From assembly GCA_003599025.1 (NCBI GenBank), contig QZIL01000043.1, positions 2,630 through 66,629 of the forward strand: DNA of 64,000 nt, given 5' to 3'. Below the pieces are notes generated by a model, which was given only the letters and a program-made list of their open reading frames with translations, did not search any database and was not told where the DNA came from. The position numbers and the translations under genes were made by a program. The first letter of the stretch is position 1. Each line of letters begins with the position of its first letter. Below, piece by piece: positions 10,119 through 64,000 of the stretch. The stretch is from Nitrospiraceae bacterium (GTDB lineage Bacteria; Nitrospirota; Thermodesulfovibrionia; UBA6902).

Positions 10119-10163
10119 ATCAACTGAATTGCAGTCAGTAATTACTCTTAACTGGAAGGAACA

Positions 10164-49452: not shown

Positions 49453-49490
49453 TTATCTCTAATAAGTTCACAGGCAGGACAACACGTTTT

Positions 49491-49579
49491 GTCATTCCCG
49501 CAAGCCCCGGACAGGCCGGGACAGGCTCCGCGCGTCGGGAATCCTGCTTAAAGTATGATTCCGGACAAGCCGGAATGAC
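49491..49579. repeat. Compound hairpin repeat, GTCATTCC family (copy D)
   Basis: Sequence reads GTCATTCCCG...CGGGAATCC - tgcttaaagtat - GATTCCGGacaagCCGGAATGAC. Confidence 0.7.
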
Positions 49580-49639
49580 ATACCTTTAAAATATACTCTT
49601 ATTTATGGCCTTCTCCGTATATTTATTGTAATATGTTCT

Positions 49640-49816
49640 ATGCGCAGAGATATCTGGATATTCCTTTTTGCCCTCGGAATAATTCTTTTCGGCTGGCCCC
49701 TCATGAGCATATTCAGATACGGCCTGTCAAAATATCTTTTCCTTGCCTGGATTATTTTTATTGCCCTTATTTTTATAGCGACAATTTATAAAAGCGACCG
49801 TAACAACGGAGGATAA
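49640..49816 (+). CDS. Small two-TM membrane protein (58 aa), not in the ORF track, abutting the symporter-kinase gene
   Basis: Translation is MRRDIWIFLFALGIILFGWPLMSIFRYGLSKYLFLAWIIFIALIFIATIYKSDRNNGG. Two clear hydrophobic helices obey the positive-inside rule. The TAA stop (49814-49816) is immediately followed by the TTG start at 49817. Confidence 0.6.
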   Translation: MRRDIWIFLFALGIILFGWPLMSIFRYGLSKYLFLAWIIFIALIFIATIYKSDRNNGG

Positions 49817-52771
49817 TTGTTTTCCATAACGGTTTTATTCTCTATAATTTTTGGTTATCTGCTACTGCTCTTTCTGATCGCTTATCTCGCGGAGCGGAAG
49901 GAGCAGCGAGGCAGCAAACTCGTATCAAATCCTTATGTTTATTCCCTCTCTCTTGCAGTCTACTGCACCTCGTGGACTTTCTACGGCAGCGTTGGCAAGG
50001 CCGCCAATGCCGGCCTGAATTTTCTCACTATATATATCGGCCCGACACTTATGGCTGCCCTGTGGTGGGTTGTCCTGAGAAAGATAGTATATATATGCAA
50101 GGAAAACAGGATCACCACGCTTTCCGACTTCATCGCCTCACGCTACGGGAACTCGCTTTTTCTTTCCGTACTTGTCACGCTCGTAGCAGTAGTCGGAATA
50201 ACCCCCTATCTGGGGCTCCAGCTCAAGGCAATTATGACGACCTTTTCGATCCTTGCCGGCCATTCCGAGGGGAGCGATTTTGCAGGGTGGTTCATTACGC
50301 TTGTGCTCGGGGTCTTCGCAATTTTCTTCGGGGCTCGAAAGGTCGATGTTTCAGAACGCCACGGCGGCCTTATCTTTGCTATTGCATTTGAGTCTGCTAT
50401 AAAGCTGATCGCCTTTATCTCCGTCGGGATATTTGTGTCTTACGGGCTGTTTGACGGTATTGGAGGCATTTTTGAGAAAATCAGGGATTCGGAATTTGCA
50501 GGCCTGATGACACTCGGGGGTGATTCCAGGGTCAGTTTTACGGAATGGACTTCCCTTACATTTCTCTCCATGATGGCGATCATGTTCCTTCCGAGACAGT
50601 TTCATGTGTCCGTTGTGGAAAACTCTTCGTACGAGCACATAAAAAAGGCGATGTGGCTTTTCCCGCTTTATCTGTTTCTCATCAACATCTTTGTACTGCC
50701 TATAGCGTACGGAGGTCTGCTCCTCGGGGAACCACAGCAGAATGCCGACTTTTTTGTGCTCAGCATCCCGCTTAAACACGGTGTTCCATATCTTGCACTG
50801 TTTGCCTTTATCGGGGGCTTTTCAGCAGCCACAGCAATGGTCATTGTTGAATCACTGGCATTAAGCACCATGGTCATGAACAGTTTTGTAATGCCTGCAC
50901 TCTGGCGTATGAACGCAATGAAGGGCTTTTACGTAATGATACTTAATACAAGGAGGATCATAATCATCGGCTTGATCTTTCTCGGCTATCTCTTCGCCAT
51001 ATCCATCGGGCATTTTTACAGCCTTGTCGATATTGGACTTAAGTCATTTGAGGCAGTCACCATATTTGCTCCTTCCCTCCTTCTCGGGCTTTACTGGAAA
51101 GGCGGGAACAAGAAAGGCGCGATAGCGGGTATCATTGCCGGTTTCAGCGTATGGATGTATACGCTCATGATACCCGCCCTTATGAGGGCCGGCATTATTG
51201 AGAAGGAGGGTTTCTGGGGAAAGGTATTTAATTCAACTTTTCTGAATCCGACAGCGTTATTCGGCCTTGAGGGACTGGACCGCTGGAGCCATTCTTTATT
51301 CTGGGGACTTCTGTTTAACATTGTGCTTTATGTAGGCATCTCGATCTTTACCGCCCAGGACGCAGAGGAGGAAAGGCAGGCCTTCAAATTCGTCGAATCT
51401 TACTCATCAAGGATGCTGCCAGCACGGGGCATATACAGTATTGAGCAGATTGAAGACATCCTCGGCCACTACACCGGTAAGAGGGAGGCGAAAGAATTCA
51501 TAGCGAATTTTCTTTCACGTAACAACATCCAGCGGGACGATGTTTCACAGAACGATCTTGTCAGGATACGCCACGAGGCTGAAAAAATATTGTCGGGTGC
51601 CCTCGGCTCCCCTATAGCCGCCATAATCTTTGAGGACAAATTTTCACTCACCGACCAGGAAAGGGGCGAACTGTCCAGTTCCATAAAACAGATAACCGAC
51701 ACGCTCAGGCTTTCAAGACAGGAACTGGCCGATGCGAACAGGGACCTGGCATATCTCAAGGATTTCAGTGAAAACATAATCGAAAGCGCACCGGTCGGGA
51801 TAGTGACTGTTGATTCCTCATTCAGGGTCAGGTACTGGAACAGACAGATGGAGGCCATAACAGGTACAAAGAAGACATCTGCCTTCAACATCTCCATTAT
51901 TCACCTTCTGCCGTGGATGAGCAGCGGGCTCTTTACCCAGAGTATGCAGGGTGAAATGATAGTCCAGACACCGGCAATGCAGTCATTCAAGATAAATATC
52001 AGCCCCCTGAAAGACCCGTCCGGCGGCTTTGTCGTGATCATCGAAGACATAACCGAAAAGAAAAAGATGGAGGAACAGCTCCTGCACTCTTCAAAACTTG
52101 CAAGCATCGGGAGACTGACTGCAGGCATATCGCACGAAATAGGAAATCCTCTCGCATCCATATCATCCCTTGTCCAGGAACTGAGGGCGCAGAGGCTCGA
52201 TTCTGAAGAGGAGAAGAAATTCACGGAAACATCGCTGAAAACTATCAACAGTCATATTGAACGCATTGTTAATATCGTCAGGAGTCTCGGTGACTTCGCG
52301 AGGATATCATCTTCGGAAAAGACCGTAACAGGAATCGCTGAAATACTAAACCGGACGATTAACCTGATCAGCTACGACAAGAGATTCAAGAACATAAAGC
52401 TGAAACTCGATGTAGGTGAAATTCCTCCCATAAAATTAAATCCGGACCAGATGCAGCAGCTGTTCTTCAACCTTATCTTAAATGCCCTGGATGCAATGCC
52501 GGACGGAGGCCGGCTTACCATATCGATGAAGCCGGCAGGAAGGTATATTGAAATAATCTTCAAAGACACGGGGACAGGGATAGAAGAGTCAGTACTGGAC
52601 AGGATATTCGATCCTTTTTATACAACCAAGACACCGGGCAAAGGGACAGGGCTTGGACTCAGTATCTGCTATGGTATAATCAAGGACCATAACGGCTCGA
52701 TAAATGTAAAAAGCAGGAAAGGAGAAGGAACTGCCTTTGTAATCAGGCTCCCGAAGGAACAGAATGGATAA
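49817..52771 (+). CDS. Sodium/solute-symporter (SLC5)-domain histidine kinase, CbrA/CrbS-like
   Basis: 984 aa. The N-terminal ~500 aa is a polytopic SSS-like domain with YCTSWTFYGSVGKA. A linker (STAC-like region) and a PAS domain follow. The classical HisKA H-box is GISHEIGNPLASI. ATPase motifs are NLILNALDAM, DTGTGI and GTGLGLS. Confidence 0.9.
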   Translation: MFSITVLFSIIFGYLLLLFLIAYLAERKEQRGSKLVSNPYVYSLSLAVYCTSWTFYGSVGKAANAGLNFLTIYIGPTLMAALWWVVLRKIVYICKENRITTLSDFIASRYGNSLFLSVLVTLVAVVGITPYLGLQLKAIMTTFSILAGHSEGSDFAGWFITLVLGVFAIFFGARKVDVSERHGGLIFAIAFESAIKLIAFISVGIFVSYGLFDGIGGIFEKIRDSEFAGLMTLGGDSRVSFTEWTSLTFLSMMAIMFLPRQFHVSVVENSSYEHIKKAMWLFPLYLFLINIFVLPIAYGGLLLGEPQQNADFFVLSIPLKHGVPYLALFAFIGGFSAATAMVIVESLALSTMVMNSFVMPALWRMNAMKGFYVMILNTRRIIIIGLIFLGYLFAISIGHFYSLVDIGLKSFEAVTIFAPSLLLGLYWKGGNKKGAIAGIIAGFSVWMYTLMIPALMRAGIIEKEGFWGKVFNSTFLNPTALFGLEGLDRWSHSLFWGLLFNIVLYVGISIFTAQDAEEERQAFKFVESYSSRMLPARGIYSIEQIEDILGHYTGKREAKEFIANFLSRNNIQRDDVSQNDLVRIRHEAEKILSGALGSPIAAIIFEDKFSLTDQERGELSSSIKQITDTLRLSRQELADANRDLAYLKDFSENIIESAPVGIVTVDSSFRVRYWNRQMEAITGTKKTSAFNISIIHLLPWMSSGLFTQSMQGEMIVQTPAMQSFKINISPLKDPSGGFVVIIEDITEKKKMEEQLLHSSKLASIGRLTAGISHEIGNPLASISSLVQELRAQRLDSEEEKKFTETSLKTINSHIERIVNIVRSLGDFARISSSEKTVTGIAEILNRTINLISYDKRFKNIKLKLDVGEIPPIKLNPDQMQQLFFNLILNALDAMPDGGRLTISMKPAGRYIEIIFKDTGTGIEESVLDRIFDPFYTTKTPGKGTGLGLSICYGIIKDHNGSINVKSRKGEGTAFVIRLPKEQNG

Positions 52772-53831
52772 AAGACTGCTTATTGTTGAAGATGAAGAGA
52801 CATTGTGCGAGTCCCTGAAAAGGGTGCTCACAAAAGAAGGTTATATTGTTGATACAGTCAATAATGCTGAATCAGCCCTCACAATGCAGCAGGAGAAATC
52901 GTATGACCTTATAGTGACCGATATCATTCTGCCGGGTATGACCGGCATAGAGCTGATACGGAAGATCAGAGAGGACAATCCTGAGCAGATCGTTGTTGTC
53001 ATGACAGCCTATGCTTCGCTCGAGACCGCTGTCGAGGCCCTCCGTGCAGGCTCCTACGATTATATCGTCAAGCCGGTCATGCATGAAGAGGTCAAGCAGA
53101 TAGTAAAAAACGCGATCAACCAGAAAGTGCTTCAGAAGGAAAACCTGCTGCTCAAGTGTCAGCTTGAGAACAAATATGACATTGAAACAATATCTCTCTA
53201 TAAAAGCCCTGCAATGAGAAAGCTTATCGATGAAATAAAAGGCATTGCCGACAGTACTGCTAATCTCCTTGTGCTCGGGGCAGCAGGCACGGAAAAGGAA
53301 CTCTGTGCCAAGCTGATGCATAGCATCAGGAAAACCCAGAAGCCTTTTGTCCCGATTCAGTGCAATACTGCAGATGCAAATTCCATCCGGCAATTCTTTG
53401 AAGCTGCTGACGGCGGAGTCATATTTCTCAATGACATCCTCTGCCTTAATGCCGATCTGCAAGTAACGCTGCTGGCCCTTATGAAAGAGCAGGATATGAG
53501 GATCATCGCCGCAGCAGACCAGGACATAGAGTCCGCCCTGCAAAAAGGCGCATTCAGCAGAGAACTATTTCAGATTATAAAAGGCATTACAATCCGGATA
53601 CCTTCCCTGAAGATCAGGAAAGAGGACATAGGGCCGCTCGCAAACTATTTCATCCAGAAATACTCCGAGGAATTCTGCAGGGGCGTCATGTCACTTGACC
53701 CCGGCGCACTGGATGTGCTGAATAATTATGACTGGCCCGGGAATGTCAGGGAGCTTCAGAACGTTATCGAGCGGGCGGTGCTGATATGCACGGGGGACAC
53801 AATTAAGGCGGAGCATCTGCCGTTGAAATAG
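52764..53831 (+). CDS. REC-domain protein with a degenerate, truncated sigma54-activator AAA+ domain (no GAFTGA, no HTH)
   Basis: 355 aa. REC is intact (LLIVEDE, DLIVTDIILPGMTG, YDYIVKP). Walker A reads GAAGTEKE instead of GETGTGKE. Walker B reads IFLNDI instead of FLDEI. The ESELFG..GAFTGA segment is absent. The protein ends right after NVRELQNVIERAV...EHLPLK. The start overlaps the kinase stop by 8 nt. Confidence 0.85.
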   Translation: MDKRLLIVEDEETLCESLKRVLTKEGYIVDTVNNAESALTMQQEKSYDLIVTDIILPGMTGIELIRKIREDNPEQIVVVMTAYASLETAVEALRAGSYDYIVKPVMHEEVKQIVKNAINQKVLQKENLLLKCQLENKYDIETISLYKSPAMRKLIDEIKGIADSTANLLVLGAAGTEKELCAKLMHSIRKTQKPFVPIQCNTADANSIRQFFEAADGGVIFLNDILCLNADLQVTLLALMKEQDMRIIAAADQDIESALQKGAFSRELFQIIKGITIRIPSLKIRKEDIGPLANYFIQKYSEEFCRGVMSLDPGALDVLNNYDWPGNVRELQNVIERAVLICTGDTIKAEHLPLK

Positions 53832-53859
53832 TTGGAACAGTTGCAACCGTTCCAACGAC

Positions 53860-54396
53860 TCAAGCGGTTGAAACCTGTTTCTCCTTCTCCCTGTTAAATC
53901 CAATCTTTCTCTTCATCTCTTCCGGCGGGGCCATCAACTTCCGGATTGCCTTGAATATCAGATGTATTTCTTCATCATGCTTTTCAAATTTACCTTCTAA
54001 CTGTTTTAATTTAATGGCGAGCTCTTTATTAGTCAAAAGGAGTTCTCTCAGTCTTACAAATGCCCTTACAACCTGAATGCTGGCCTGAACAGCAGCTGTA
54101 CTGTTTAATACATTCGCAAGCATGATTGCCCCATACTCAGTAAAGACATAAGGAAGATAACGACGACCGCCCCGACTTGAGGTCGCAAAATGCGACCTCA
54201 AGTTCTCAAACTCATCTTCATTTAATTGGAACATGAAGTCAGATGGGAATCGATCCAGGTTGCGCCTGACCTGTTCATTGAGACGCTTGGTCGTTACTCC
54301 GTAAAGGCCTGCAAGATCTGCATCTATCATTACCCTATGGCCCCTGATTATGAATATCCTTTGCTGAATTTCCTCAATGGAAATAATCTCATTCAT
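53860..54396 (-). CDS. ORF6N-domain protein (KilA-N-related DNA-binding fold, usually associated with mobile elements)
   Basis: 178 aa. The sequence IFIIRGHRVMIDADLAGLYGVTTKRLNEQVRRNLDRFPSDFMFQL...LPYVFTEYGAIMLANVL matches the ORF6N pattern. It is the only minus-strand gene in this locus. Confidence 0.8.
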   Translation of the reverse strand: MNEIISIEEIQQRIFIIRGHRVMIDADLAGLYGVTTKRLNEQVRRNLDRFPSDFMFQLNEDEFENLRSHFATSSRGGRRYLPYVFTEYGAIMLANVLNSTAAVQASIQVVRAFVRLRELLLTNKELAIKLKQLEGKFEKHDEEIHLIFKAIRKLMAPPEEMKRKIGFNREKEKQVSTA

Positions 54397-54647
54397 ACCT
54401 GTCCCCCTTTCATAAAAAGCGGTTAAACGATTAAGCGGTCAATTTTTCAAACGCTCGAACATTCAAATGGTTTTTGGTAAAATCTACTGCCTGCGTCCCC
54501 GTAATGACGGTTGATTATAACATATAAATAACCGTTGCAGCGGTTGCAACTATTGATAATCACGACTCCTTCCCCCCTCTTTGCCTTCCTCCTGTCAAGC
54601 ACCTCTGCGGGAAAGGATTTTCATCTTGTAGTATATTATTTAATACC

Positions 54648-56537
54648 ATGATCCTCGAAGAAGCGATAAGCTTTCTACAGAAGAACCCCCCTTATCAGTT
54701 CCTTGACGGCCCTGTACTGAAAGAAATAGCACACAGTCTGTCGATGGAGTTCTATCCGAAAGATACTGTTATCCTGAAACAGGACGGGCCGCCGAGCGAC
54801 GCAGTCCGCATCATTAAGAAGGGCAGCGTGAAGATACTTGTCCGGGCTGAAGGCGGGATGGATTCGGTCATGGATTTCAGGGGGGAAGGAGACAGCTTCG
54901 GTTTTGTCTCAATGGTGGCGAAGGACCGGCAGAAGACCACTGTTGTTGCTGCAGATGATACGATCTGTTATATCCTTGAGAGAGATAAAATCCTTAAGCT
55001 TATCGAGACCGCCCCTGTCATTGCAGAGTACTTCATGTCCCACCTGACGCGGTACGTTGACAGGACATTTGAGGAGATGAAAGGACGAAGCCTCGCATAC
55101 AGCGGCACCGACCGGCTGCTTTTCACAACTCCTTCCGGAGACATCGCCAAAGAGGTGATAACCGTGCCGGAGGAAACAACACTTCAGGAGGCTGCAAAGG
55201 TCATGGCAGGTCACAGGATCAGCTCACTTATTGTAGTAAACAGGAACCATGTACCTGCAGGCATTATAACGGACCGGGACCTGCGGAGGGTCGTTGCAAA
55301 CGCCCGCAATGTGGCTGACCCGGTAAAAGACATCATGAGCATCTCTCTCATCAGGGTCGATGCGAGTGATTCGTGTTTTGAGGCGGTCCTGAAGATGATA
55401 AAATACAACATCCACCACATGATAGTCATTAAAGAGGGGGAGCTTAAAGGGATAATCACCAATCATGACCTGATGCTCCTGCAGGGCACATCGCCACTGT
55501 CATTTGTAAATGATATCGAGAAACAGCAGACCATTGAAGACCTTGTCCCCGTCACATCAAAGATGAATACAATAATAGGTCTTCTTCTGCAGGAAAGCAC
55601 TAAAGCCGGCAGTATTACCGGAATTATTACAGAGATAAACGACAGGCTTCTGAAAAAGGTGATCGAAATTGCAGAGAGGAAATTCGGCCCGCCTCCAGTG
55701 CCTTACTGTTTTATCGTGTACGGCAGTGAAGGCAGAAGGGAGCAGACGTTCAGGACGGACCAGGACAACGCGATCATTTATGCTGACACATCAGCCGAGG
55801 GTGAGGAAGAGGCGGAGAAGTATTTTTCGGTGCTTTCTGCTTTCATAAAGAACAGTCTTGTTCAAATAGGGTTTTCTTCATGCAAGGCAGATTACATGGC
55901 CAGCAATCCGAAATGGCGCAAGGCCCTGAAGCAATGGAAGGATTACTTTGATAACTGGATCACACAACCCACCCCGGAAGCGGTCCTCAAGTCTCTTATA
56001 TTTTTTGACATGAGGCCTGTACACGGCAAATTCAGTTTGTGTGAAGAACTCCGCAGTTTCTATACACCACTGATCGTAAAAAACAAAATATTTCTCGCTA
56101 ACATGGCGAGTATAATTGTAAAGAACACTCCTCCGATAGGTTTCCTTAAATCATTTGTAGTGGAAAAAAGCGGTGAACATAAAAACGAGTTCGATCTGAA
56201 GCTTAAGGGTATTATGCCCCTTAACGATATAATACGCCTGTTCGCGCTTGAAAACGGGATGAGACTGACCTCCACCCTTGACAGGATAGGGGCGTTGAAG
56301 ACCGGACAGTCTGCAGTCAGGGAATATCACAACGAAATTGTCCACGTCTTTGAATTTATCATGATGCTGAGGATGCATTATCAGTTTGAACAGATAAAGG
56401 AAGGGCATAGCCCGGACAATTTCATAAACCCGGACAAACTGAGCAATCTTGAGAAGAAGACACTCAGGGAGGCGTTCCATCTGATATCGAGACTCCAGGG
56501 GATAGTTGTTGAGATGTACAAGCCTTTGATTGTATGA
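54648..56537 (+). CDS. cNMP-binding + tandem CBS + DUF294 nucleotidyltransferase + DUF294_C protein (paralogue 1)
   Basis: 629 aa. The cNMP-like motif is FRGEGDSFG. CBS pair markers are ISSLIVV and HHMIVI. The Pol-beta NTase motif is YGSEGRREQTFRTDQDNAIIY. The C-terminal substrate-binding-like domain is helical. Confidence 0.88.
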   Translation: MILEEAISFLQKNPPYQFLDGPVLKEIAHSLSMEFYPKDTVILKQDGPPSDAVRIIKKGSVKILVRAEGGMDSVMDFRGEGDSFGFVSMVAKDRQKTTVVAADDTICYILERDKILKLIETAPVIAEYFMSHLTRYVDRTFEEMKGRSLAYSGTDRLLFTTPSGDIAKEVITVPEETTLQEAAKVMAGHRISSLIVVNRNHVPAGIITDRDLRRVVANARNVADPVKDIMSISLIRVDASDSCFEAVLKMIKYNIHHMIVIKEGELKGIITNHDLMLLQGTSPLSFVNDIEKQQTIEDLVPVTSKMNTIIGLLLQESTKAGSITGIITEINDRLLKKVIEIAERKFGPPPVPYCFIVYGSEGRREQTFRTDQDNAIIYADTSAEGEEEAEKYFSVLSAFIKNSLVQIGFSSCKADYMASNPKWRKALKQWKDYFDNWITQPTPEAVLKSLIFFDMRPVHGKFSLCEELRSFYTPLIVKNKIFLANMASIIVKNTPPIGFLKSFVVEKSGEHKNEFDLKLKGIMPLNDIIRLFALENGMRLTSTLDRIGALKTGQSAVREYHNEIVHVFEFIMMLRMHYQFEQIKEGHSPDNFINPDKLSNLEKKTLREAFHLISRLQGIVVEMYKPLIV

Positions 56538-56550
56538 TGACAGTACAAAA

Positions 56551-56636
56551 GTACGGAAGCGCGGAAGTGCAGAAGACGGGAAGTCCATCATTTTCACTTT
56601 CCCGCTTACGATCTTCCCCGCTTACCATCTTTTTTT
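56551..56636 (+). terminator. Periodic-arm hairpin (8-mer arrays) followed by a T-run; probable terminator
   Basis: The left arm is GTACGGAA GCGCGGAA GTGCAGAA GACGGGAA. An 11-nt centre follows, then ACTTTCCCGCTTACGATCTTCCCCGCTTACC, then TTTTTTT. Confidence 0.55.
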
Positions 56637-56669
56637 GGCAGTATACGTATAATAATACGGAACCAATAG

Positions 56670-58019
56670 ATGGCTGAACGAATACTCATAGTTGAAGACG
56701 AAGGTACCCTCAGAGAATCACTGAAACGGGTGCTCTCTCAGGAGAGCTATGCTGTTGATACCGTTAACAGTGCCGAGTCCGCCCTCCAGAGCATTGAAGA
56801 CGGCACGTATGATCTCATAATTACCGACATAATACTTCCGGGGATAGACGGTATAGAACTCGTGAGGAGGGTAAGGGAAAAGAACCTCGAACAGGCTGTC
56901 ATCGTAATAACTGCATACGCGTCACTGGAAACGGCTGTTGGCGCCCTCAGGGCAGGGGCATACGATTATGTGGTAAAACCGATCATCCATGAAGAGTTGA
57001 AGCGGACCATAAAAAATGCTTTGAGGGAAAAGGCGCTCAAGGCTGAAAACCTTATACTGAAAAAGCAGATCGAGAACAGATATGATTTCGGAAAGATAGT
57101 CGGGTTGAGCAAAGTCATAACTTCGCTGATAGATGAGATCAAAAAGATCGCTGACTCAAAGAGTAATGTCCTCCTGCTTGGCGAAACAGGAACAGGGAAA
57201 GAGCTGTTTGCAAGGGCAATTCATTACAACAGTTCGAGGCGGGAAAAACCGTTTATCCCCATAAACTGCAGCGCAATCCCGGAAAACCTCCTTGAGTCCG
57301 AACTGTTCGGGTATACAAAAGGCGCCTTCACCGGAGCGGTAACGTCAAAGAGGGGACTATTCGAGGAGGCTGACGGGGGAACGGTCTTCCTTGATGAAAT
57401 TGCAGACATGTCCCTCGCCCTTCAGGCAAAGCTGCTGCGCGTAATAGATGACCTGGAGATCCGTCCGCTCGGAGGCGTCCAGAGCAGAAAGATCGACGTA
57501 CGTTTCATAACCGCGACAAACAGGGAACCGATGAGGGCTGTAAGGGAAGGCGCCTTCAGGGAAGACCTTTACTACAGGATAAATGTTGTGACTCTCAAGC
57601 TCCCTCCCCTGCGGGAACGGAAGGAAGATATCCTGGTCCTTGCAAAACACTTCCTTAATAAATATTCGAACGAACTCGGCAAGCACGTCAGGTCAATCGA
57701 TGATATAGCGCAGACACTTCTGATGAATTACTCGTGGCATGGGAATGTTCGTGAACTCCAGAATATCATGGAACGGGCGGTGCTCGTAACCGACCGTGAT
57801 ACAATATTGCCTGAACACCTCCCTGATACACTTCAGGCAATCGACGACTTCCCCTGTGAAGCACTCGATAAGGTCCTCTCGATAGAGAGATATACCAAGG
57901 AATTTATCCTGCGGTATCAGTCAAAGCATGGTGAAAATGCATTGGCAGAAATGCTCGGAATAACAAGAAAGTCACTGTGGGAAAAGAGAAAGAAATGGGG
58001 CCTCGCAAGAGGCAAATAA
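56670..58019 (+). CDS. Sigma54-dependent response regulator, NtrC family (CbrB/CrbR-like), intact
   Basis: 449 aa. It has a REC domain. The AAA+ domain has GETGTGKE, ESELFGYTKGAFTGA, VFLDEI and R-fingers. The C-terminal Fis-type HTH is LAEMLGITRKSLWEKRKKWGL. Confidence 0.95.
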   Translation: MAERILIVEDEGTLRESLKRVLSQESYAVDTVNSAESALQSIEDGTYDLIITDIILPGIDGIELVRRVREKNLEQAVIVITAYASLETAVGALRAGAYDYVVKPIIHEELKRTIKNALREKALKAENLILKKQIENRYDFGKIVGLSKVITSLIDEIKKIADSKSNVLLLGETGTGKELFARAIHYNSSRREKPFIPINCSAIPENLLESELFGYTKGAFTGAVTSKRGLFEEADGGTVFLDEIADMSLALQAKLLRVIDDLEIRPLGGVQSRKIDVRFITATNREPMRAVREGAFREDLYYRINVVTLKLPPLRERKEDILVLAKHFLNKYSNELGKHVRSIDDIAQTLLMNYSWHGNVRELQNIMERAVLVTDRDTILPEHLPDTLQAIDDFPCEALDKVLSIERYTKEFILRYQSKHGENALAEMLGITRKSLWEKRKKWGLARGK

Positions 58020-58068
58020 TGTTACATTTTTTCACATGTTCCAATTGTGATTATTACAAAAAGTAACA
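58020..58068. promoter_or_regulatory. Inverted TGTTAC ... GTAACA half-sites (candidate enhancer/UAS); a third TGTAACA lies at 58130-58136
   Basis: TGTTAC (58020-58025) and GTAACA (58063-58068) are separated by 37 nt. They lie about 170-215 nt upstream of the -24/-12 promoter. The extended flanks aTGTTACAtttttt / aaaaaGTAACAt are also mutually complementary. Confidence 0.4.
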
Positions 58069-58234
58069 TGGCCTAACCTCTTGATTTTCAATGTTTCTTC
58101 CCGATTCCGGCCTTAATATCGATACTATATGTAACATCAAGAAATATCTGGCCAGCCTCAATCAGCAACACAGACTCCAGCCCTGACCTAATTATATCAT
58201 TATTTCTAACTAGTTAGACTAATTACCTCACCAC

Positions 58235-58250
58235 GGGCACATGCTTTGCG
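58235..58250 (+). promoter_or_regulatory. Sigma54 (-24/-12) promoter
   Basis: GGGCACatgctTTGCG has GG and GC separated by exactly 10 nt, matching TGGCAC-N5-TTGCW at all core positions. It lies ~60 nt upstream of the ATG at 58308. Confidence 0.8.
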
Positions 58251-58307
58251 ATATCCAGTTTATCTATATAAATATTTTCCCCTTTAACTATATAAAAGAA
58301 ATAAAGC

Positions 58308-60215
58308 ATGACTGTAAAAGAGGTAAAAGATTTCCTCAGTAGCATCCAGCCATTTCAGGAGCTGGATGATGCTGCGCTGGGCAATATTGCAGGCGGGGTC
58401 ATTGTCGAGTTTTATCCCAAAGACACCCTCATATTGCAGCAGGACGGTCCACCGAGCGATTTTCTCAGGATAATAAAAAAAGGCGGGGTCAAGGTATTCA
58501 TCAAGCCGGATATAAATGAGGAAGTCATCATCGATTACAGGAGCGAGGGCGATTCCTTCGGTCTGCTCTCACTTATCCGGGGTGACAAATCCCGGGCAAA
58601 TGTCACTGCAGTGGAAGACACTATCTGCTATCTTGTGACTAAAGAAACCATCCAACTGCTTCTGGACAGCAACGCTGCCTTCTCCGAGTATTTTCTCAAG
58701 TCCTTTCTCAACAAATATATAGACAAGACCTTCAGTGAAATGCACAGCAAAAGCCTGTTGTACGGCGGAGGGGACAAGCTGCTCTTCACAACTCCGGTCG
58801 GAGAGCTTGCATCCAGGACTGCAGTGACTGTGCCGCAGGAGGTATCAATAAAAGATGCTGCTGAGGTGATGTCAAAGAGGAAGATAAGCTCGCTTGTCCT
58901 TGTAGACCAGGACAACCTGCCCGCTGGAATTGTTACTGACAGGGACCTGCGTGACAAAGTCGTTTCAAAAGGCCGCAATGTTGCTGATCCAATCAGCAGC
59001 ATAATGAGCGTACCTCTTATGACAACAGAGGCGAGGGACTATTGCTTTGAGGCACTTCTCAAAATGATCCGCCACAACATTCATCACCTGCTTGTTGTGG
59101 ATGAGGGGAAATTAAAAGGCATCCTTACAAACCACGACTTGATGATGCTGCAGGGCACCTCCCCTATCTCGATAGTACGGGACATAGAGACCAGACAGAG
59201 CGTGGAAGACCTGGTGCCTGTCTCAAAAAAGATAAACAGGATAGTACACCTTCTGCTCAAAGAAGGCGCACGGGCAGGCAACATTACAAGAATAATATCC
59301 GAGATCAATGACCGTCTCCTCAGAAAGGTACTTGAGATAGCAGAAAGAAAGTTCGGGGAACCGCCGGTCAATTACTGTTTTATTGTGTTCGGCAGCGAGG
59401 GCAGAAAAGAGCAGACATTCAAGACCGACCAGGACAATGCCATAATCTATGAAGACCCGAAATCAGCTGCAGAAGGAATAAAGGCAGAGGAATATTTTGA
59501 GGGCTTTTCTGCATTTGTAAAAGAGGCGCTGGTTCTGTGCGGCTTTCCAAACTGCCCGGCAGGGTATATGGCGAGCAATCCAAAATGGCGTCAGCCATTA
59601 ATAATATGGAAAGACTATTTCGCAAAATGGATCCACACCCCGACACCTGATTCTCTACTGCTTTCACTGATATTTTTTGACTTTCGCCCTGTACACGGAG
59701 ACATCAGTCTCTCTGAAAAATTAAGGTCACACCTTAAGAAGACCATGAAAGACCAGAACATCTTCTTTGCCCGTATGGCAGGCACGATCATGAACAACCG
59801 GCCACCTCTCGGGTTCTTCAAGTCCTTTATAGTTGAAAAAAGCGGGGAGCATAAAGACGAGCTCAACCTGAAATTCAGGGGCATCGGCCCAATAGTTGAT
59901 ATTGCAAGACTGTTTGCCCTTGAAAAAGGCCTTTCCGAGACCTCAACAATCGACAGGCTGCGCGCACTTAAGGACAAGCACCCGATAATCATGGAACTCG
60001 GAGAAGAAATAGAGCAGGCATTCGAGTTCATCAGCCTCCTCAGGGTCCATCACCAGATAGGACTGATGGAGAGGTCACTTGAACCTGACAATTTTATTAA
60101 CCCGAACAACCTCAGCGGTCTTGAGAAAAAGTCCCTCAAGGAATCCTTCCAGCTGGTCCTGAATATTCAGGAGGCGATCTCTGAGCTGTACAGACCGGGA
60201 ATGGTGAGTATGTAA
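58308..60215 (+). CDS. cNMP-binding + tandem CBS + DUF294 nucleotidyltransferase + DUF294_C protein (paralogue 2)
   Basis: 635 aa, colinear with paralogue 1. The NTase motif is FGSEGRKEQTFKTDQDNAIIY. Confidence 0.88.
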   Translation: MTVKEVKDFLSSIQPFQELDDAALGNIAGGVIVEFYPKDTLILQQDGPPSDFLRIIKKGGVKVFIKPDINEEVIIDYRSEGDSFGLLSLIRGDKSRANVTAVEDTICYLVTKETIQLLLDSNAAFSEYFLKSFLNKYIDKTFSEMHSKSLLYGGGDKLLFTTPVGELASRTAVTVPQEVSIKDAAEVMSKRKISSLVLVDQDNLPAGIVTDRDLRDKVVSKGRNVADPISSIMSVPLMTTEARDYCFEALLKMIRHNIHHLLVVDEGKLKGILTNHDLMMLQGTSPISIVRDIETRQSVEDLVPVSKKINRIVHLLLKEGARAGNITRIISEINDRLLRKVLEIAERKFGEPPVNYCFIVFGSEGRKEQTFKTDQDNAIIYEDPKSAAEGIKAEEYFEGFSAFVKEALVLCGFPNCPAGYMASNPKWRQPLIIWKDYFAKWIHTPTPDSLLLSLIFFDFRPVHGDISLSEKLRSHLKKTMKDQNIFFARMAGTIMNNRPPLGFFKSFIVEKSGEHKDELNLKFRGIGPIVDIARLFALEKGLSETSTIDRLRALKDKHPIIMELGEEIEQAFEFISLLRVHHQIGLMERSLEPDNFINPNNLSGLEKKSLKESFQLVLNIQEAISELYRPGMVSM

Positions 60216-60216
60216 T

Positions 60217-60864
60217 ATGCGGACAACGTTCTTCTCAAAAAAAACTGAATCAGCGTCACTGCTGCTTGGTGACGCCGTGTATACCGTGCTCGATACAGAG
60301 CTCACAGGACTTGACATGAAAAAGGACTCCATAGTCTCAATAGGCGCGGTCAGGATGAAAGGCACAAGGATTGATATAGGGAATTCATTCTATCGCCTGA
60401 TACATCCGGCGGGCAGAATGGACCATAAAAACATCCTCATACACGGGATCACTCCGTCAGAGGTTGAGGAAGAGCCGGTTGTGGACGCTGTCCTTGATGA
60501 CCTGTCGGCATTTTGCGGGAACAGCGTTATAGTCGGGCACTTTGTTTCACTTGACATAAATTTCATCAACAGGGAATTAAAGCGGACCGGCAGGGCAAAA
60601 CTGAAGAACGCTGCTGTAGACACCTGCAAAATCTATGAATGGATCAAGTCAAGTGAAGGAGCATTCAGCAGACATTATTCCGCAAGGCAGGACGAACTCG
60701 ACCTGTTCTCCCTTGCGAGGGAATATAACATTACATTCAATGAGGGGCATAATGCCCTTGGCGACGCGTTCATTACGGCACAGCTCTTTCAGAGGTTTTT
60801 GTATGCACTGCCCGGACTGGGAGTAAACAGCATACGTGACCTCCTGAAAACAGGGAAGGCATGA
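60217..60864 (+). CDS. DEDDh 3'-5' exonuclease (DnaQ/epsilon-like, stand-alone)
   Basis: 215 aa. Exo I is VLDTELTGL, Exo II is VGHFVSLDINFI and Exo III is HNALGDAFITAQLF. The start lies 1 nt after the upstream stop. Confidence 0.88.
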   Translation: MRTTFFSKKTESASLLLGDAVYTVLDTELTGLDMKKDSIVSIGAVRMKGTRIDIGNSFYRLIHPAGRMDHKNILIHGITPSEVEEEPVVDAVLDDLSAFCGNSVIVGHFVSLDINFINRELKRTGRAKLKNAAVDTCKIYEWIKSSEGAFSRHYSARQDELDLFSLAREYNITFNEGHNALGDAFITAQLFQRFLYALPGLGVNSIRDLLKTGKA

Positions 60865-60914
60865 AGACGCTGTTATTAATTCAGAAAGAAGGAGGTGATA
60901 AGGGGGGACTCGGG

Positions 60915-60953
60915 ATTTAAGAGTTAAGAGTTAAGATTTAAGAGTTAAGATTC
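60915..60953. repeat. 7-mer array (AGTTAAG family)
   Basis: ATTTAAG AGTTAAG AGTTAAG ATTTAAG AGTTAAG is the reverse complement of the CTTAACT-type array embedded in murD (28204-28234). Confidence 0.65.
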
Positions 60954-60980
60954 AAAATCTGAAAGGAGGACAACTGGTTT

Positions 60981-61244
60981 ATGGACAAATTAAAGCTTGA
61001 AGCATACTGGAATGAAAACAAGAAGCTGACGTGGATAACCATGATCATCTGGTTCGTTGTCTCGTATGTCGCGGCATTTTTTGCCGCTGAATTAAACAGC
61101 ATTACGATCCTCGGGTTCCCTCTGGGATACTACATGGGGGCGCAGGGCTCCCTCATCGTGTTTGTGGTTCTCATTTTCAACTATGCGGCAAAGATGAACA
61201 AACTGGACAGGAAATACGATGTCGAAGAGGAGGAGGAAAAATAA
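60981..61244 (+). CDS. DUF4212 small membrane protein (putative solute:sodium symporter small subunit)
   Basis: 87 aa with two TM helices. The motif is GFPLGYYMGAQGSLIVFVVLIFNYAAKMNKLD. Its stop is immediately followed by the symporter ATG. Confidence 0.85.
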   Translation: MDKLKLEAYWNENKKLTWITMIIWFVVSYVAAFFAAELNSITILGFPLGYYMGAQGSLIVFVVLIFNYAAKMNKLDRKYDVEEEEEK

Positions 61245-63251
61245 ATGGCAAAGGAAAAATCTGCATTTCTGGATAACCTTGGCAGGATATATGCCATGTA
61301 TACGGTGGTATTCATTGTCTTTGTTCTCGCCCTCGCTGTGGCCGAACAGATGGGTCTTTCTTCAAAGATCATCGGATGGACCTTCATGGGCGTTACAATC
61401 GCACTCTATGCTGCCATAGGTATCATGAGCAGGACAGCAAAGGTCTCGGAGTATTATGTCGCCGGAAGAAGTGTTCCGGCTTTCTTTAATGGCATGGCAA
61501 CCGGCTCTGACTGGATGTCGGCAGCTTCATTCATCAGTATGGCAGGCGCCCTGTACGGGAACGGGTACGACGGCCTCGCATACATCATGGGCTGGACCGG
61601 TGGCTACGTGCTGCTCGCAGTCTTCCTTGCCCCTTACCTGAGGAAATTCGGGCAGTACACAATACCTGACTTTCTGGGCGCACGCTACGGTGGAAACGCC
61701 GCGCGTTCAATCGGCATCTTCGCCGCAATCCTTGCATCAACAACGTATCTCATTGCACAGGTCACAGGCGTCGGCATCATTACGAGCCGCTTCCTCGGCA
61801 TACCTTTTAACGTCGGAGTATTCGTCGGTCTCGGCGGTATTCTCGTCTGCTCGATGCTTGGAGGCATGAGGGCCGTCACATGGACACAGGTCGCGCAGTA
61901 CATCATCCTGATCCTCGCATACCTTACCCCGGTCACGGTTATGTCCTTCAAGGCCACAGGGAACCCCGTTCCTGAAATCGCCTATGGACAGATCCTCCAG
62001 AAGATAAACCATCGGGAGGCCCAGCTTATTGCGGACCCGAAGGAGCAGGAGGTCAAGGACATCTGGAAGCAAAAGGCCGCTGACATTGACGCAGATATCA
62101 ATGCACTGCCAGGGAGCCTCGAGGCGAAAAGGCAGGGCCTGAATGACAAACTCGCTGCCTTGCCTGCAGACTCCCCGGCAGCAGACAGGGAGCAAATCGA
62201 GAAGGACATCGCCGCTTTACCAAAAACAGATGCAGAGGCAAAGGAGGCATGGACCAAGTCAAAAGCAGCAGCAGCCAAGGCAGGCGGCCCGCTTAAGATT
62301 TATACAACCCCTTTCACGAATATGGACAAGGCCAATATGCTCGCCCTCACCTTCTGTCTAATGGTAGGAACTGCGGGTCTGCCGCACATTCTCATGCGAT
62401 ACTATACCGTCCCTTCGGTCAAGGCGGCCCGGTCTTCAGTGGGCTGGTCGCTATTTTTCATTTTCCTGCTCTACTTCACAGCACCGGCATACGCGGCATT
62501 TGCACGGCACGAGATCATCACTAACGTTGTCGGACAGTCATTTGCAACACTGCCTGCATGGGTCGCTGCATGGGGCAAGGTAGGTCTGTTCACAGTCAAA
62601 GACCTGAATGCCGACGGCATCCTCCAGTTCGCTGAGATCACACTGAATACAGATGTCATCGTGCTTGCGACACCTGAAATCGCGGGCCTTCCTTATGTCA
62701 TAGCAGGCCTTGTGGCGGCAGGCGGTCTTGCTGCAGCGCTTTCAACAGCAGACGGGCTGCTTCTCACCATCTCAAACTCACTCTCTCACGACCTGTACTA
62801 CAAGATGATCAACCCGAAGGCATCCATTACAACCAGACTGACTATCTCAAGGGTGCTGCTTGTTGTAACAGCCGTACTTGCCGCCTGGATAGCCACCTAC
62901 AAGATCACGATCATTGTCGAACTTGTGGCGTGGGCCTTCTCGCTCGCGGCAGCAGCGTTCTTCCCTGCACTTGTCATGGGCATCTGGTCAAAAAAGACCA
63001 CAAAACAGGCCGCTGTCACCGGAATGGTACTCGGTCTTGCAGTCACCCTGTATTACATGATAGGTAACAGGTTCTATGGTGTTAACTGGTTCGGGATCAA
63101 GCACATCTCATCCGGTATCTTCGGACTGCCGGTTGGTTTCTTAACAATGTGGCTTGTCTCAAAATTCACTCCTGCACCTTCAGAGGAACTGCAGGAATTT
63201 GTTGAAGGCGTAAGATACCCGAGAGGATCGGGAACAGCATCAGACGAGTAA
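61245..63251 (+). CDS. Sodium:solute symporter, VC_2705/ActP-like large subunit
   Basis: 668-aa polytopic SSS-family protein (YYVAGRSVPAFFNGMATGSDWMSAASF, GGMRAVTWTQVAQ). It has a ~100-aa hydrophilic Ala/Lys/Asp-rich insertion mid-protein. Confidence 0.9.
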   Translation: MAKEKSAFLDNLGRIYAMYTVVFIVFVLALAVAEQMGLSSKIIGWTFMGVTIALYAAIGIMSRTAKVSEYYVAGRSVPAFFNGMATGSDWMSAASFISMAGALYGNGYDGLAYIMGWTGGYVLLAVFLAPYLRKFGQYTIPDFLGARYGGNAARSIGIFAAILASTTYLIAQVTGVGIITSRFLGIPFNVGVFVGLGGILVCSMLGGMRAVTWTQVAQYIILILAYLTPVTVMSFKATGNPVPEIAYGQILQKINHREAQLIADPKEQEVKDIWKQKAADIDADINALPGSLEAKRQGLNDKLAALPADSPAADREQIEKDIAALPKTDAEAKEAWTKSKAAAAKAGGPLKIYTTPFTNMDKANMLALTFCLMVGTAGLPHILMRYYTVPSVKAARSSVGWSLFFIFLLYFTAPAYAAFARHEIITNVVGQSFATLPAWVAAWGKVGLFTVKDLNADGILQFAEITLNTDVIVLATPEIAGLPYVIAGLVAAGGLAAALSTADGLLLTISNSLSHDLYYKMINPKASITTRLTISRVLLVVTAVLAAWIATYKITIIVELVAWAFSLAAAAFFPALVMGIWSKKTTKQAAVTGMVLGLAVTLYYMIGNRFYGVNWFGIKHISSGIFGLPVGFLTMWLVSKFTPAPSEELQEFVEGVRYPRGSGTASDE

Positions 63252-63259
63252 AATCTTCA

Positions 63260-63288
63260 GGGGGGACGTATACGTCCCCCCTTTTTTT
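63260..63288 (+). terminator. Rho-independent terminator
   Basis: GGGGGGACG-TATA-CGTCCCCCC is a perfect 9-bp stem followed by TTTTTTT. Confidence 0.9.
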
Positions 63289-63371
63289 ATTTAATGTAAA
63301 GAAGATAACTGCCGTATTATAATTGACAGAGCCACGGGCCACTAAGAACTACGTAACAATGCCACATTTCT

Positions 63372-63397
63372 GGATCCCGGACTTGCCCCGGGATGAC
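63372..63397. repeat. Single-hairpin unit of the GTCATTCC family (copy E)
   Basis: GGATCCCGGacttgcCCCGGGATGAC corresponds to the right-hand half of the compound repeats. Confidence 0.5.
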
Positions 63398-63492
63398 GAC
63401 CATGAGGCTTTTTTACGTTATGTCTTGGCAATTAAAATAAGTCGCTTTTTTAATGTTTTCACAATTGATGATTCATGCTATATTAATCAGAA

Positions 63493-63795
63493 ATGTTAGT
63501 AATTAAATTTGTTAAATATACGCTAGCTTTTTTCAGCTGGATGATAATCGGCAGGGTACTGTTGACTCTGCTGGTAGGGTCACGCAGGAACTTAATGGTT
63601 GATTTTTTTGTACGTTTTACAGAGCCGTTTTATATTATTACCGGTAAATTCCTTCCCTTCACACAGGTATCACCTGAAAGGGAAGGGACTGTCTGGGCAA
63701 GAATCGGCGGCATGAAACCTTTCTTTGCGCTGATTCTGATTCAGGTTTTGTGGCTGGTCATTTATGCCCTTGTTAAAAAGACGGGGGCATTTTAG
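63493..63795 (+). CDS. Small membrane protein, possibly YggT-like
   Basis: 100 aa with two hydrophobic helices. FSWMIIGRVLLTLL is reminiscent of the YggT motif. The assignment is weak. Confidence 0.4.
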   Translation: MLVIKFVKYTLAFFSWMIIGRVLLTLLVGSRRNLMVDFFVRFTEPFYIITGKFLPFTQVSPEREGTVWARIGGMKPFFALILIQVLWLVIYALVKKTGAF

Positions 63796-63895
63796 AAAAT
63801 AAGACATACCATCGTGTAGAATTAACATGTAATATACCGGCTTGATCAGGAACATGCAAGTTTGGCTGTTCCACGCCGGAAAAAAAGGAGGTTGC

Positions 63896-64000
63896 ATGGC
63901 AGACGACAAGAAAATTGAAGTCCTGATGACGGAAGGACGGACATTCCCGCCTTCAAAGGAATTAAGCAGCAAGGCCCATATAAAGAGTATGGCGGAATAC
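63896..64000 (+). CDS. acs: Acetyl-CoA synthetase, 5' end (truncated by the window edge)
   Basis: AGGAGG lies 4 nt upstream of the ATG. The translation MADDKKIEVLMTEGRTFPPSKELSSKAHIKSMAEY matches the typical Acs N-terminus pattern (..FPPS.E....AHI.S..EY). Only 35 codons are visible. Confidence 0.6.
   Translation, partial: MADDKKIEVLMTEGRTFPPSKELSSKAHIKSMAEY

Follow-up and report, generated by a model that had tools for sequence, protein, structure and literature searches.

What does a predicted nucleotidyltransferase (NTase) fitted with sensor domains do beside a small exonuclease, among genes for carboxylate uptake and activation? The question arises from a 64,000-nt stretch of DNA (the window) from a Nitrospiraceae metagenome-assembled genome (MAG; contig QZIL01000043.1 of assembly GCA_003599025.1). 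The window holds two DUF294 genes, D1 and D2, an exonuclease gene, EXO, directly after D2, the two subunit genes of an SSS-family symporter, and the 5' end of acs, which encodes AMP-forming acetyl-CoA synthetase (Acs). This arrangement is best explained as the form taken in Nitrospirota by a conserved cassette that regulates the uptake and activation of acetate-type monocarboxylates. Genes were taken from an open reading frame (ORF) listing and domains from Pfam and NCBIfam profile searches; positions refer to the window, genes lie on the forward strand unless marked, and L-numbers denote related loci.

The cassette itself has already been published. In Pseudomonas putida KT2440, PP_0354 (cNMP domain, two CBS domains and NTase) and PP_0353 (RNase_T family) form one operon, which is a direct target of ErdR and ranks among the genes most dependent on MxtR/ErdR, the equivalent of the SLC5/STAC kinase system CrbS/CrbR; the Pseudomonas aeruginosa homologues PA3233/PA3232 adjoin yjcH-actP (PMC9927547; bioRxiv 10.64898/2026.09.07.749794; PMC9765439). 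Pflu5625 of Pseudomonas fluorescens stands in the CrbS/R regulon list, and regulation of proteins by nucleotidylation has been proposed for it (PMC5715377). Neither the gene association nor the protein-modification hypothesis is new (PMC5715377; bioRxiv 10.64898/2026.09.07.749794). A first reading of the window from its letters (the sequence-only reading) had stated that no function was assigned, and the literature still bears this out (PMC9927547; bioRxiv 10.64898/2026.09.07.749794).

Comparison across genomes shows how firmly the two genes are joined. The scan covered one genome per GTDB species, used conserved NTase peptides from 11 sequences with intact motifs, and identified flanking genes by phmmer with the window proteins; because the query sequences all had intact motifs, the D genes found are biased toward intact motifs. 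It returned 80 loci in Nitrospirota, Acidobacteriota (Holophagaceae, Terriglobia), Thermodesulfobacteriota (including cable bacteria) and Chloroflexota (Thermoflexus). A small DEDDh gene lies directly downstream of D, on the same strand, at 65 of the 79 loci with enough downstream sequence, with a median gap of 1 nt (15 nt or less in 49 of the 65), and just four other exonuclease-like ORFs occur elsewhere in the scanned loci. At a generous background rate of 0.2% per gene, the binomial probability of this pairing is about 1e-161. Evidence that the co-localisation is real and strongly non-random is overwhelming. The family behind it is large: at E<=1e-30, D2 finds matches in no fewer than 2,215 clusters formed at 50% identity.

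The surroundings of the pair point to carboxylate metabolism. The gene-neighbourhood statistics that the sequence-only reading had called for favour its proposed link to acs as well, which lies within 10 kb of 39 of the 65 pairs and directly upstream of D in 14. An SSS symporter or DUF4212 subunit gene accompanies 47 pairs, and in 34 the symporter gene directly follows EXO. The symporters are of two kinds, DUF4212/VC_2705 at 22 loci and DUF485 with an ActP-like protein at 25 (at L009, the ActP-like protein reaches 720 bits where the ActP cut-off is 750, and DUF485 reaches 98 bits), and from these profile matches the change of kind is a non-orthologous symporter swap at one position. The pairing also recurs in proteobacteria, as the sequence-only reading had stated. 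A Vibrio pelagius plasmid carries DUF294 and then the exonuclease with a 1-nt spacer, and a Paracoccus denitrificans cluster reads acs, DUF4212, SSS, DUF294, a hypothetical gene, a REC gene and a 659-aa protein that carries RNase_T at its C-terminus. The further statement that the pair sits beside acs in Vibrio was not confirmed, since this sole annotated Vibrio example lies near pectin and KDG genes.

Within the window, the transport and activation genes follow the pair in the order first read, namely DUF4212, SSS symporter, strong terminator and acs, as profile matches and a stem with T-run confirm. The small subunit matches TIGR03647 at 112.8 bits (cut-off 26.05) and the large subunit TIGR03648 at 769.1 bits (cut-off 320.75), and their genes abut at 61244/61245, which assigns the symporter to the VC_2705 type. 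Three ActP models, whose cut-offs are 750, 1099 and 850 bits, score the large subunit at 185, 153 and 150 bits. The description of the locus as one of acetate uptake and activation consequently stands for the presence of acs and an SSS symporter, and fails for ActP itself. DUF4212/SSS systems are needed for the use of D,L-lactate in Shewanella or D-alanine in Pseudomonas stutzeri (bioRxiv 10.1101/072470, section 42), and in both they are stated to be cofit with a neighbouring 'COG2905 (RNase T domain protein)' (bioRxiv 10.1101/072470). Because VC_2705-type relatives serve lactate or D-alanine, acetate uptake is something we infer, and the best evidence that the window symporter carries acetate-type monocarboxylates is that ActP-like proteins take the same position while D, EXO and acs stay constant.

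The large subunit has a further feature of interest. Its Pfam SSF match is split in two by a hydrophilic insertion of about 125 aa (residues ~240-368), rich in Ala, Lys, Glu and Asp, which is possibly a regulatory or modification loop. Close Nitrospirota relatives are 665-670 aa long and Desulfobulbia versions about 585-590 aa. Beyond the window's edge, a complete 657-aa Acs with ACAS_N, AMP-binding and AMP-binding_C domains is encoded on metagenome contig L001, whose D2 is identical. The short hydrophobic ORF between the terminator and acs has a weak match to YGGT (22 bits, under the cut-off) and is called as a gene on the same contig.

Both D proteins have the DUF294/COG2905 architecture, with all four domains above Pfam gathering scores. 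D1 scores 52.5 bits for cNMP_binding, 86.4 for the CBS pair, 157.9 for DUF294 (PF03445) and 144.8 for DUF294_C (PF10335); the values for D2, which is 55% identical to D1, are 48.1, 77.8, 170.1 and 144.6. The sequence-only reading had noted that both keep the catalytic signature G-S-E-G-R-x-E-x5-D-Q-D. It is indeed intact in D1 (G359...D371-Q-D373; GSEGRREQTFRTDQD) and D2 (G362...D374-Q-D376; GSEGRKEQTFKTDQD), and a third carboxylate can be added, D454 in FFD454MRP and D458 in FFD458FRP, so that the Pol-beta-type signature (hG[GS], DxD, third carboxylate) is complete in both. How common dead sites are was judged from 50%-identity representatives and contig look-ups, which are free of the bias of the intact-motif scan. 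The DxD dyad is gone in about 15 of 54 diverse DUF294 representatives, which retain GSxGRxE and the FxD-x-R element, and for this reason the intact motif in D1 and D2 is informative. No exonuclease gene follows D1, and its position is kept in Nitrospirota relatives.

The sensor half of the protein joins a conserved CBS ligand site to a barrel that departs from known cyclic-nucleotide receptors. The CBS1 motif GIVTDRDLR, which would contact ribose-phosphate, is near-invariant across the family alignment. In the cNMP-like barrel, the canonical phosphate-binding-cassette Glu is absent, and the residue after F-G is hydrophobic (F, L or Y) family-wide. The cassette Arg occurs in 25 of 56 sequences, where D2 has R96 and D1 has Lys, and the following residue is seldom S or T. 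The fold family matches, although the canonical F-G-E and R-[ST]-A contacts of CAP/PKA-type proteins are missing. Given the near-invariant CBS1, the missing Glu and the patchy Arg, an adenosyl ligand is plausible, whereas cAMP or cGMP is doubtful and should not be taken for granted. The original proposal of an adenosyl-sensing cNMP/CBS module is thus upheld as to its domains, with its cyclic-nucleotide part in doubt.

Structure prediction gives an indication of what the catalytic half might do. An AlphaFold2 (AF2) model of D2 residues 291-635 has a pLDDT of 96.3, and Foldseek against the PDB returns, at E<=1e-3, solely DrrA and both domains of GlnE, each over the whole module. The matches are DrrA/SidM-Rab8a (6yx5_B; E 4.7e-7, TM-score 0.66), the deadenylylation (AR) domain of GlnE (1v4a; E 1.5e-6) and its adenylylation (AT) domain (3k7d; E 5.2e-6); these protein AMPylases align at TM 0.61-0.66 over about 340-370 columns with 13-14% sequence identity. 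The stretch G362-x11-D374-x-D376 in D2 corresponds to the G-x11-[DE]-x-[DE] signature of DrrA and GlnE. A PDB profile search with the family alignment was dominated by CBS and cNMP matches and returned nothing on the NTase half, and searching the PDB with one sequence turned up no DUF294 domain of solved structure. It is well supported by this model, and new here, that the catalytic half of D folds like protein AMPylases, unlike polymerases or cyclic-nucleotide synthases. The analogy to GlnD/GlnE drawn in the sequence-only reading thereby gains structural backing, and the fold matches together with the motif favour a protein substrate over polymerase-like or messenger-synthase activity.

Two other substrates for D can be weighed against the same model. 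D might adenylylate a metabolite or xenobiotic, with EXO linked incidentally: the aminoglycoside NTases (ANT/AadA/KNTase), which also pair an NTase core with a helical domain, form the second tier of Foldseek hits. Their matches are weak (E ~1e-2, TM ~0.3) compared with the full-length ones to GlnE and DrrA, and an incidental linkage would leave the near-obligatory EXO (65 of 79) and the tie to symporter and acs unexplained, so this reading is very improbable. Alternatively, as had been suggested from the letters, D might make a nucleotide signal, a linear or cyclic (oligo)nucleotide or NpnN messenger, that EXO degrades much as oligoribonuclease acts on pGpG. In formal terms, an NTase with a 3'-5' phosphodiesterase makes a synthase/degrader pair, adenosyl ligands are what CBS domains bind, and the two genes are tightly coupled in translation. 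Structural support is absent, however: no significant fold match links D to CD-NTases, cGAS or nucleotide cyclases (CdnC, E 0.21 and TM 0.18), the lack of canonical contacts in the cNMP-like domain leaves no obvious signal receptor, and dead-NTase variants persist with EXO. The chance that the pair works in this way is slim.

EXO is best described as a stand-alone protein of the DEDDh phosphodiesterase fold. The DEDDh gene that had been placed 1 nt after the second paralogue has every expected motif: Exo I D26-x-E28, Exo II D113 and Exo III H178-x4-D183, with RNase_T at 96 bits, and all five residues (D26, E28, D113, H178, D183) are conserved in every one of 36 homologues. Exactly 1 nt separates the D2 stop codon from the EXO ATG, and the genes are translationally coupled. 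EXO is 100% identical to a protein from a 'Nitrospiraceae bacterium' MAG, and its close homologues all come from Nitrospirota or Thermodesulfovibrionales MAGs. The AF2 model (pLDDT 87.8) is a plain DnaQ-like domain whose top Foldseek matches are DnaQ domains, the DinG N-terminal domain, the PolC exonuclease domain, epsilon and RNase T (E 1e-14 to 1e-9).

These likenesses raise the possibility that EXO is the replicative DnaQ/epsilon subunit or a DNA-repair nuclease in a coincidental neighbourhood, or that the pair is an anti-phage cassette. The motifs and fold are compatible with this, JGI labels homologues 'DNA polymerase-3 subunit epsilon', and a generic PADLOC DEDDh model matches EXO. No further DEDDh gene was found within the 64-kb window. 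The dnaQ equivalog scores are nevertheless far under their cut-offs (TIGR01406, 72.3 against 222.7; PRK05711, 77.2 against 196), and the protein stops about 32 residues past Exo III without the C-terminal alpha-binding segment of epsilon. By these scores and the missing tail, the Pol III epsilon reading, the proofreading subunit that the sequence-only reading had named as the case that would undo it, appears contradicted. EXO also keeps its place after D in four phyla, a metabolic two-component system controls the cassette, and a P. putida PP_0353 deletion is viable and normal on succinate and acetate (PMC9927547). A role in replication, repair or defence is scarcely credible. Anti-phage defence of the CBASS-like kind was also considered and rejected: PADLOC returned only weak cNMP-domain cross-hits for D and the generic DEDDh match for EXO, and the context is metabolic.

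How, then, might the two proteins work together? The proposal that a ligand-gated writer (the NTase) and an eraser (EXO) set the activity of the carboxylate symporter, of Acs or of both falls a little short of an even chance. According to this model, D would sense the adenylate or metabolite state and transfer a nucleoside monophosphate (NMP) to a protein of the uptake/activation machinery, most likely the symporter complex and next Acs, and the modification would damp activity. EXO, complexed with D as sensor or adaptor, would then hydrolyse the protein-O-P-nucleoside phosphodiester, free 5'-NMP and restore activity; chemically, such de-modification would equal the release of a 3'-terminal NMP. 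In this scheme, the writer/eraser step is a hypothesis, and so is the choice of target.

Mutant phenotypes from Pseudomonas and the locus structure bear on this model. Growth on pyruvate is impaired by deletion of PP_0353, actP-I or yjcH, and not by deletion of PP_0354 (bioRxiv 10.64898/2026.09.07.749794), while deletion of either PP_0354 or PP_0353 has no effect on growth on 20 mM acetate (bioRxiv 10.64898/2026.09.07.749794; PMC9927547). A writer/eraser pair would explain why loss of EXO phenocopies loss of the transporter and why loss of the NTase is silent on pyruvate. It would also account for the fold, for the tight coupling of the genes, and for loci that combine a dead D and EXO with a separate intact D. 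Such combinations occur at L078 (dead D, EXO, acs, intact D) and L087 (dead D, EXO, then an intact D with CBS domains and without the cNMP-like domain).

Several observations weigh against the model, and the dead-site variants among them demand an explanation. D proteins predicted to be inactive through loss of DxD are still paired with an intact EXO, a finding that is new here. At L082 (kinase, sigma-54 response regulator, dead D, EXO, SSF) and L086 (dead D, then EXO) no second D is visible, so in some lineages the D partner cannot be the writer. Conversely, at about 10 loci a small REC gene lies upstream of D and no small exonuclease downstream, which argues that D can work without one. Neither acs nor a symporter gene lies within 10 kb of 16 of the 65 pairs, whose neighbours are unrelated genes apart from one isocitrate lyase, and no other conserved partner emerged at the cassette-alone loci of Acidobacteriota. 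To our knowledge, hydrolysis of a protein-nucleotide adduct has no precedent among DEDDh enzymes. In P. putida, both single deletions lower growth on propionate (bioRxiv 10.64898/2026.09.07.749794), which is unexpected for a simple antagonistic pair. The shared propionate defect and a dead D without a second D are thus not well accounted for.

The variants also qualify what can be said of catalysis. The sequence-only reading had staked its case on the catalytic residues being needed; they are intact in D1 and D2, and since DxD-less D proteins elsewhere keep an intact EXO, catalysis by the adjacent D is not always required. DxD-less proteins are predicted pseudo-NTases that may still bind nucleotide. 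They make up about a quarter of diverse DUF294 (representatives P0244-P0293) and occur in both EXO-linked and D1 positions; one relative, P0249/L085, has a D1-position protein without DxD. The loci with REC and D suggest phosphorelay-controlled use of the same NTase. At L026-L029, L042 and L062 (D at ~10001-11900), an intact DUF294 gene follows a REC-only gene of 123-157 aa, with no exonuclease, acs or symporter gene nearby. A second nuclease architecture of 659-760 aa also occurs beside a small REC gene and DUF294, at L090 (10685-12664), L037 (7380-9596) and L060 (7446-9728). The nucleases of L037 and L060 have 738 and 760 aa; Pfam places a C-terminal RNase_T domain in those of L090 and L037, and a PAS domain in that of L037 as well.

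Control at the level of RNA is the strongest alternative. EXO would then be a 3'-5' exoribonuclease that processes or stabilises an mRNA or small RNA required to express the symporter or acs regulon, with D mainly as a ligand-sensing regulator or adaptor whose NTase activity is optional or auxiliary. The nearest folds to EXO are all nucleic-acid exonucleases, DxD-dead D proteins keep an intact EXO, and the fusion of the exonuclease domain to PAS sensor regions beside REC and D (Paracoccus, L037) suggests that the nuclease is a regulated effector. Loss of EXO, and not of the NTase, gives the transporter-like phenotype (bioRxiv 10.64898/2026.09.07.749794). This reading nonetheless leaves unexplained the complete GlnE/DrrA-type active site in most D proteins, D1 and D2 included. 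EXO is a single 215-aa domain with no recognisable RNA-binding extension, and an Rfam scan of 49000-64000 gave noise only, with no structured RNA or Rfam family. Taken together, RNA-level control is unlikely, with a sizeable minority chance of being correct.

The writer/eraser proposal can be extended into a stronger claim, in which EXO does not act on nucleic acids at all and removes nucleotide marks that a sensor NTase of the GlnE/DrrA type places on proteins, dead D proteins serve as adaptors that pass the modified target to EXO, and a hitherto unrecognised, very widespread and reversible nucleotidylylation switch gates SSS symporters, Acs or both in step with the adenylate or metabolite state of the cell. 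In this full form the claim is doubtful, and its consequences would be considerable. If D is a protein AMPylase or UMPylase, a switch in the style of GlnE/GlnD would be added to carboxylate uptake and activation; if EXO is the eraser, the DnaQ fold would gain a reaction beyond those known for it. Among the known unknowns of bacterial carbon metabolism, the DUF294-exonuclease cassette belongs with the larger ones: its genes are coupled in translation in at least four phyla and in proteobacteria, and it is wired into regulons that decide the scavenging of acetate, pyruvate and propionate.

The regulatory wiring of the locus is well supported by its predicted genes and sites (Table 1). The sequence-only reading had begun the system at D1; it starts further upstream, with the genes of a sensor kinase (49817-52771) and a degenerate regulator (52764-53831). 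The kinase combines an SSF domain (residues 43-442; E 2.3e-5) with PAS (652-750), HisKA and HATPase_c domains, an architecture of the CbrA/CrbS 'transceptor' type, and has no receiver domain; its gene is syntenic with the module at L002, L003, L007, L019, L022 and L040. Its SLC5 domain was considered as a close paralogue of the operon symporter and rejected, as BLASTP gave about 22-26% identity over short stretches. The second response regulator (RR), RR2, has a Sigma54_activat match of 236 bits and the GAFTGA motif; its best NCBIfam model is AtoC, at 458 bits, below the cut-off.

Upstream of D2, GGGCACATGCTTTGCG is the sole GG-N10-GC match in six intergenic regions scanned. A -24/-12 site precedes the EXO-linked D at 23 related loci, almost all in Nitrospirota, against a background of 0.046 per search window, and 26 of 93 scanned D genes have such a site; L004, for instance, has TGGCACTGTATTTGCT, and many other loci have TGGCAT-N5-TTGCT. 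By sequence, a sigma-54 promoter upstream of the pair is conserved in Nitrospirota, and this is new here. No site was found upstream of acs, D1, RR2 or the kinase gene in the window with up to 3 mismatches; among related loci, none precedes D1-type genes or the kinase gene (0 of 10), and acs has one in 1 of 17 genes. The gaps D2/EXO, EXO/DUF4212 and DUF4212/SSS measure 1, 116 and 0 nt. The promoter, the small gaps and the lack of a terminator ahead of 63259 together argue for one sigma-54-dependent operon, D2-EXO-DUF4212-SSS, which RR2 and the SLC5 kinase probably switch on.

Three repeats about 100-215 nt upstream of the promoter form a candidate enhancer, or upstream activating sequence (UAS), for RR2. 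Their 8-mer ATGTAACA is found in the window 4 times where 1.6 would be expected; since 8 of 100 shuffles reach this count, the enrichment is not significant. The spacer between EXO and DUF4212 holds a separate repeat, the tandem heptamer TTAAGAG (60917-60950; 4.9 copies, 92% matches), just 5' of a GGAGG ribosome-binding site.

The first regulator, RR1, shares 49% identity with RR2; its alignment leaves a gap of 19 residues around GAFTGA, Walker A reads GAAGTEKE in place of GETGTGKE, and the protein ends at EHLP without HTH. As judged from these losses, it probably cannot contact sigma-54 or DNA, and it may be a phosphate sink or a partner of D1. Orthologues of 355-391 aa occupy the same place after the kinase gene at L002, L019, L022 and L085. 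In the window, an ORF6N gene lies between RR1 and D1. At L002 RR1 has 390 aa and stands 15 nt from D1, which suggests that the ORF6N region, some 0.8 kb, was inserted here and shortened RR1; L019 has a 355-aa RR1 and a gap of about 1 kb. The ORF6N gene also matches the PADLOC candidate family PDC-S05 (195 bits).

Table 1. Features of the locus, with positions in the 64,000-nt window
Feature	Position	Strand	Description
SLC5-domain sensor histidine kinase	49817-52771	+	984 aa; SSF, PAS, HisKA, HATPase_c (Pfam)
RR1	52764-53831	+	355 aa; REC and degenerate sigma-54 AAA+ domain (Pfam)
ORF6N gene	53860-54396	-	Pfam 116 bits; between RR1 and D1
D1	54648-56537	+	629 aa; cNMP-like, CBSx2, DUF294, DUF294_C
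RR2	56670-58019	+	449 aa; NtrC/AtoC-type REC-AAA+-HTH_8
Candidate enhancer (UAS) for RR2	58019-58137		three copies of ATGTTACAT/ATGTAACAT, inverted and direct
Putative sigma-54 (-24/-12) promoter GGGCACATGCTTTGCG	58235-58250	+	GG-N10-GC match; 58 nt upstream of D2
D2	58308-60215	+	635 aa; cNMP-like, CBSx2, DUF294, DUF294_C
EXO, stand-alone DEDDh (DnaQ-like) exonuclease-fold protein	60217-60864	+	215 aa; RNase_T
DUF4212 symporter small subunit	60981-61244	+	87 aa; TIGR03647
VC_2705-family SSS symporter large subunit	61245-63251	+	668 aa; TIGR03648
Intrinsic terminator	63259-63292	+	10-bp stem, 8 G-C pairs, then T-run
Hydrophobic ORF	63493-63795	+	100 aa; between terminator and acs
acs 5' end (AMP-forming acetyl-CoA synthetase)	63896-64000	+	35 codons inside the window, the rest beyond its edge

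Structurally, both proteins resemble well-studied families, yet display several distinctions. EXO has in common with the DnaQ-like group (PolC exonuclease, DinG, Cas2-DEDDh, RNase T) the Exo I-III motifs, including the DEDDh histidine, and the fold; a subfamily-specific loop at residues ~145-160, modelled at low confidence, sets it apart. Unlike epsilon, it has no C-terminal alpha-binding tail, scores under all dnaQ cut-offs and is coupled to a DUF294 gene. The likeness of D to GlnE and DrrA lies in the NTase core and helical substrate-binding domain of the D2 model. D differs in bearing cNMP-like and CBS sensor domains, and it has one NTase domain where GlnE has two. Its partner is a DEDDh protein, compared with the second NTase domain of GlnE, the HD domain of GlnD and the PP2C-like SidD that accompanies DrrA.

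Acs is known to be controlled by acylation, through Pat/CobB, AcuABC and a mycobacterial cAMP-dependent cNMP-GNAT acetyltransferase. In these systems, as proposed here, a sensor-domain enzyme near acs could reversibly modify Acs, and AcuB, a CBS protein, was among the CBS matches. The chemistry here would differ, being nucleotidylylation, and the Pseudomonas phenotypes point to the transporter over Acs.

On the regulatory side, CbrA/CbrB, CrbS/CrbR and RpuS/RpuR have an SLC5-like N-terminus, PAS and histidine kinase domains in common with the window kinase. These systems control genes for carboxylate uptake and activation; for the window, we infer such regulation from the conserved sigma-54 promoter. 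RR2 is a sigma-54 enhancer-binding protein (EBP) like CbrB, whereas the target set resembles that of CrbS/R. Two genes that lie between those of the kinase and RR2 set the window apart from these systems, namely RR1, the degenerate paralogue of the EBP, and one of the D paralogues.

The closest counterpart is PP_0354/PP_0353 of P. putida, which, judged from published domain descriptions, has the same architecture: a protein with cNMP, two CBS and NTase domains, then an RNase_T exonuclease, in one operon. It is controlled by an SLC5 kinase together with acs and a two-subunit SSS symporter, as we propose for the window, and the P. aeruginosa pair lies beside yjcH-actP, like that of sister Nitrospirota loci. 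Several features differ from Pseudomonas. The response regulator is a sigma-54 NtrC/AtoC-type EBP and not LuxR-type CrbR/ErdR, the kinase lacks a receiver, the NTase gene is duplicated (D1, D2), the symporter is of the DUF4212/VC_2705 type and not ActP, and the host is a Nitrospirota (Thermodesulfovibrionia-like) MAG. To the known forms of this cassette the window adds one from Nitrospirota in which the NTase is duplicated, a sigma-54 regulator takes the part of CrbR, and a VC_2705 symporter replaces ActP.

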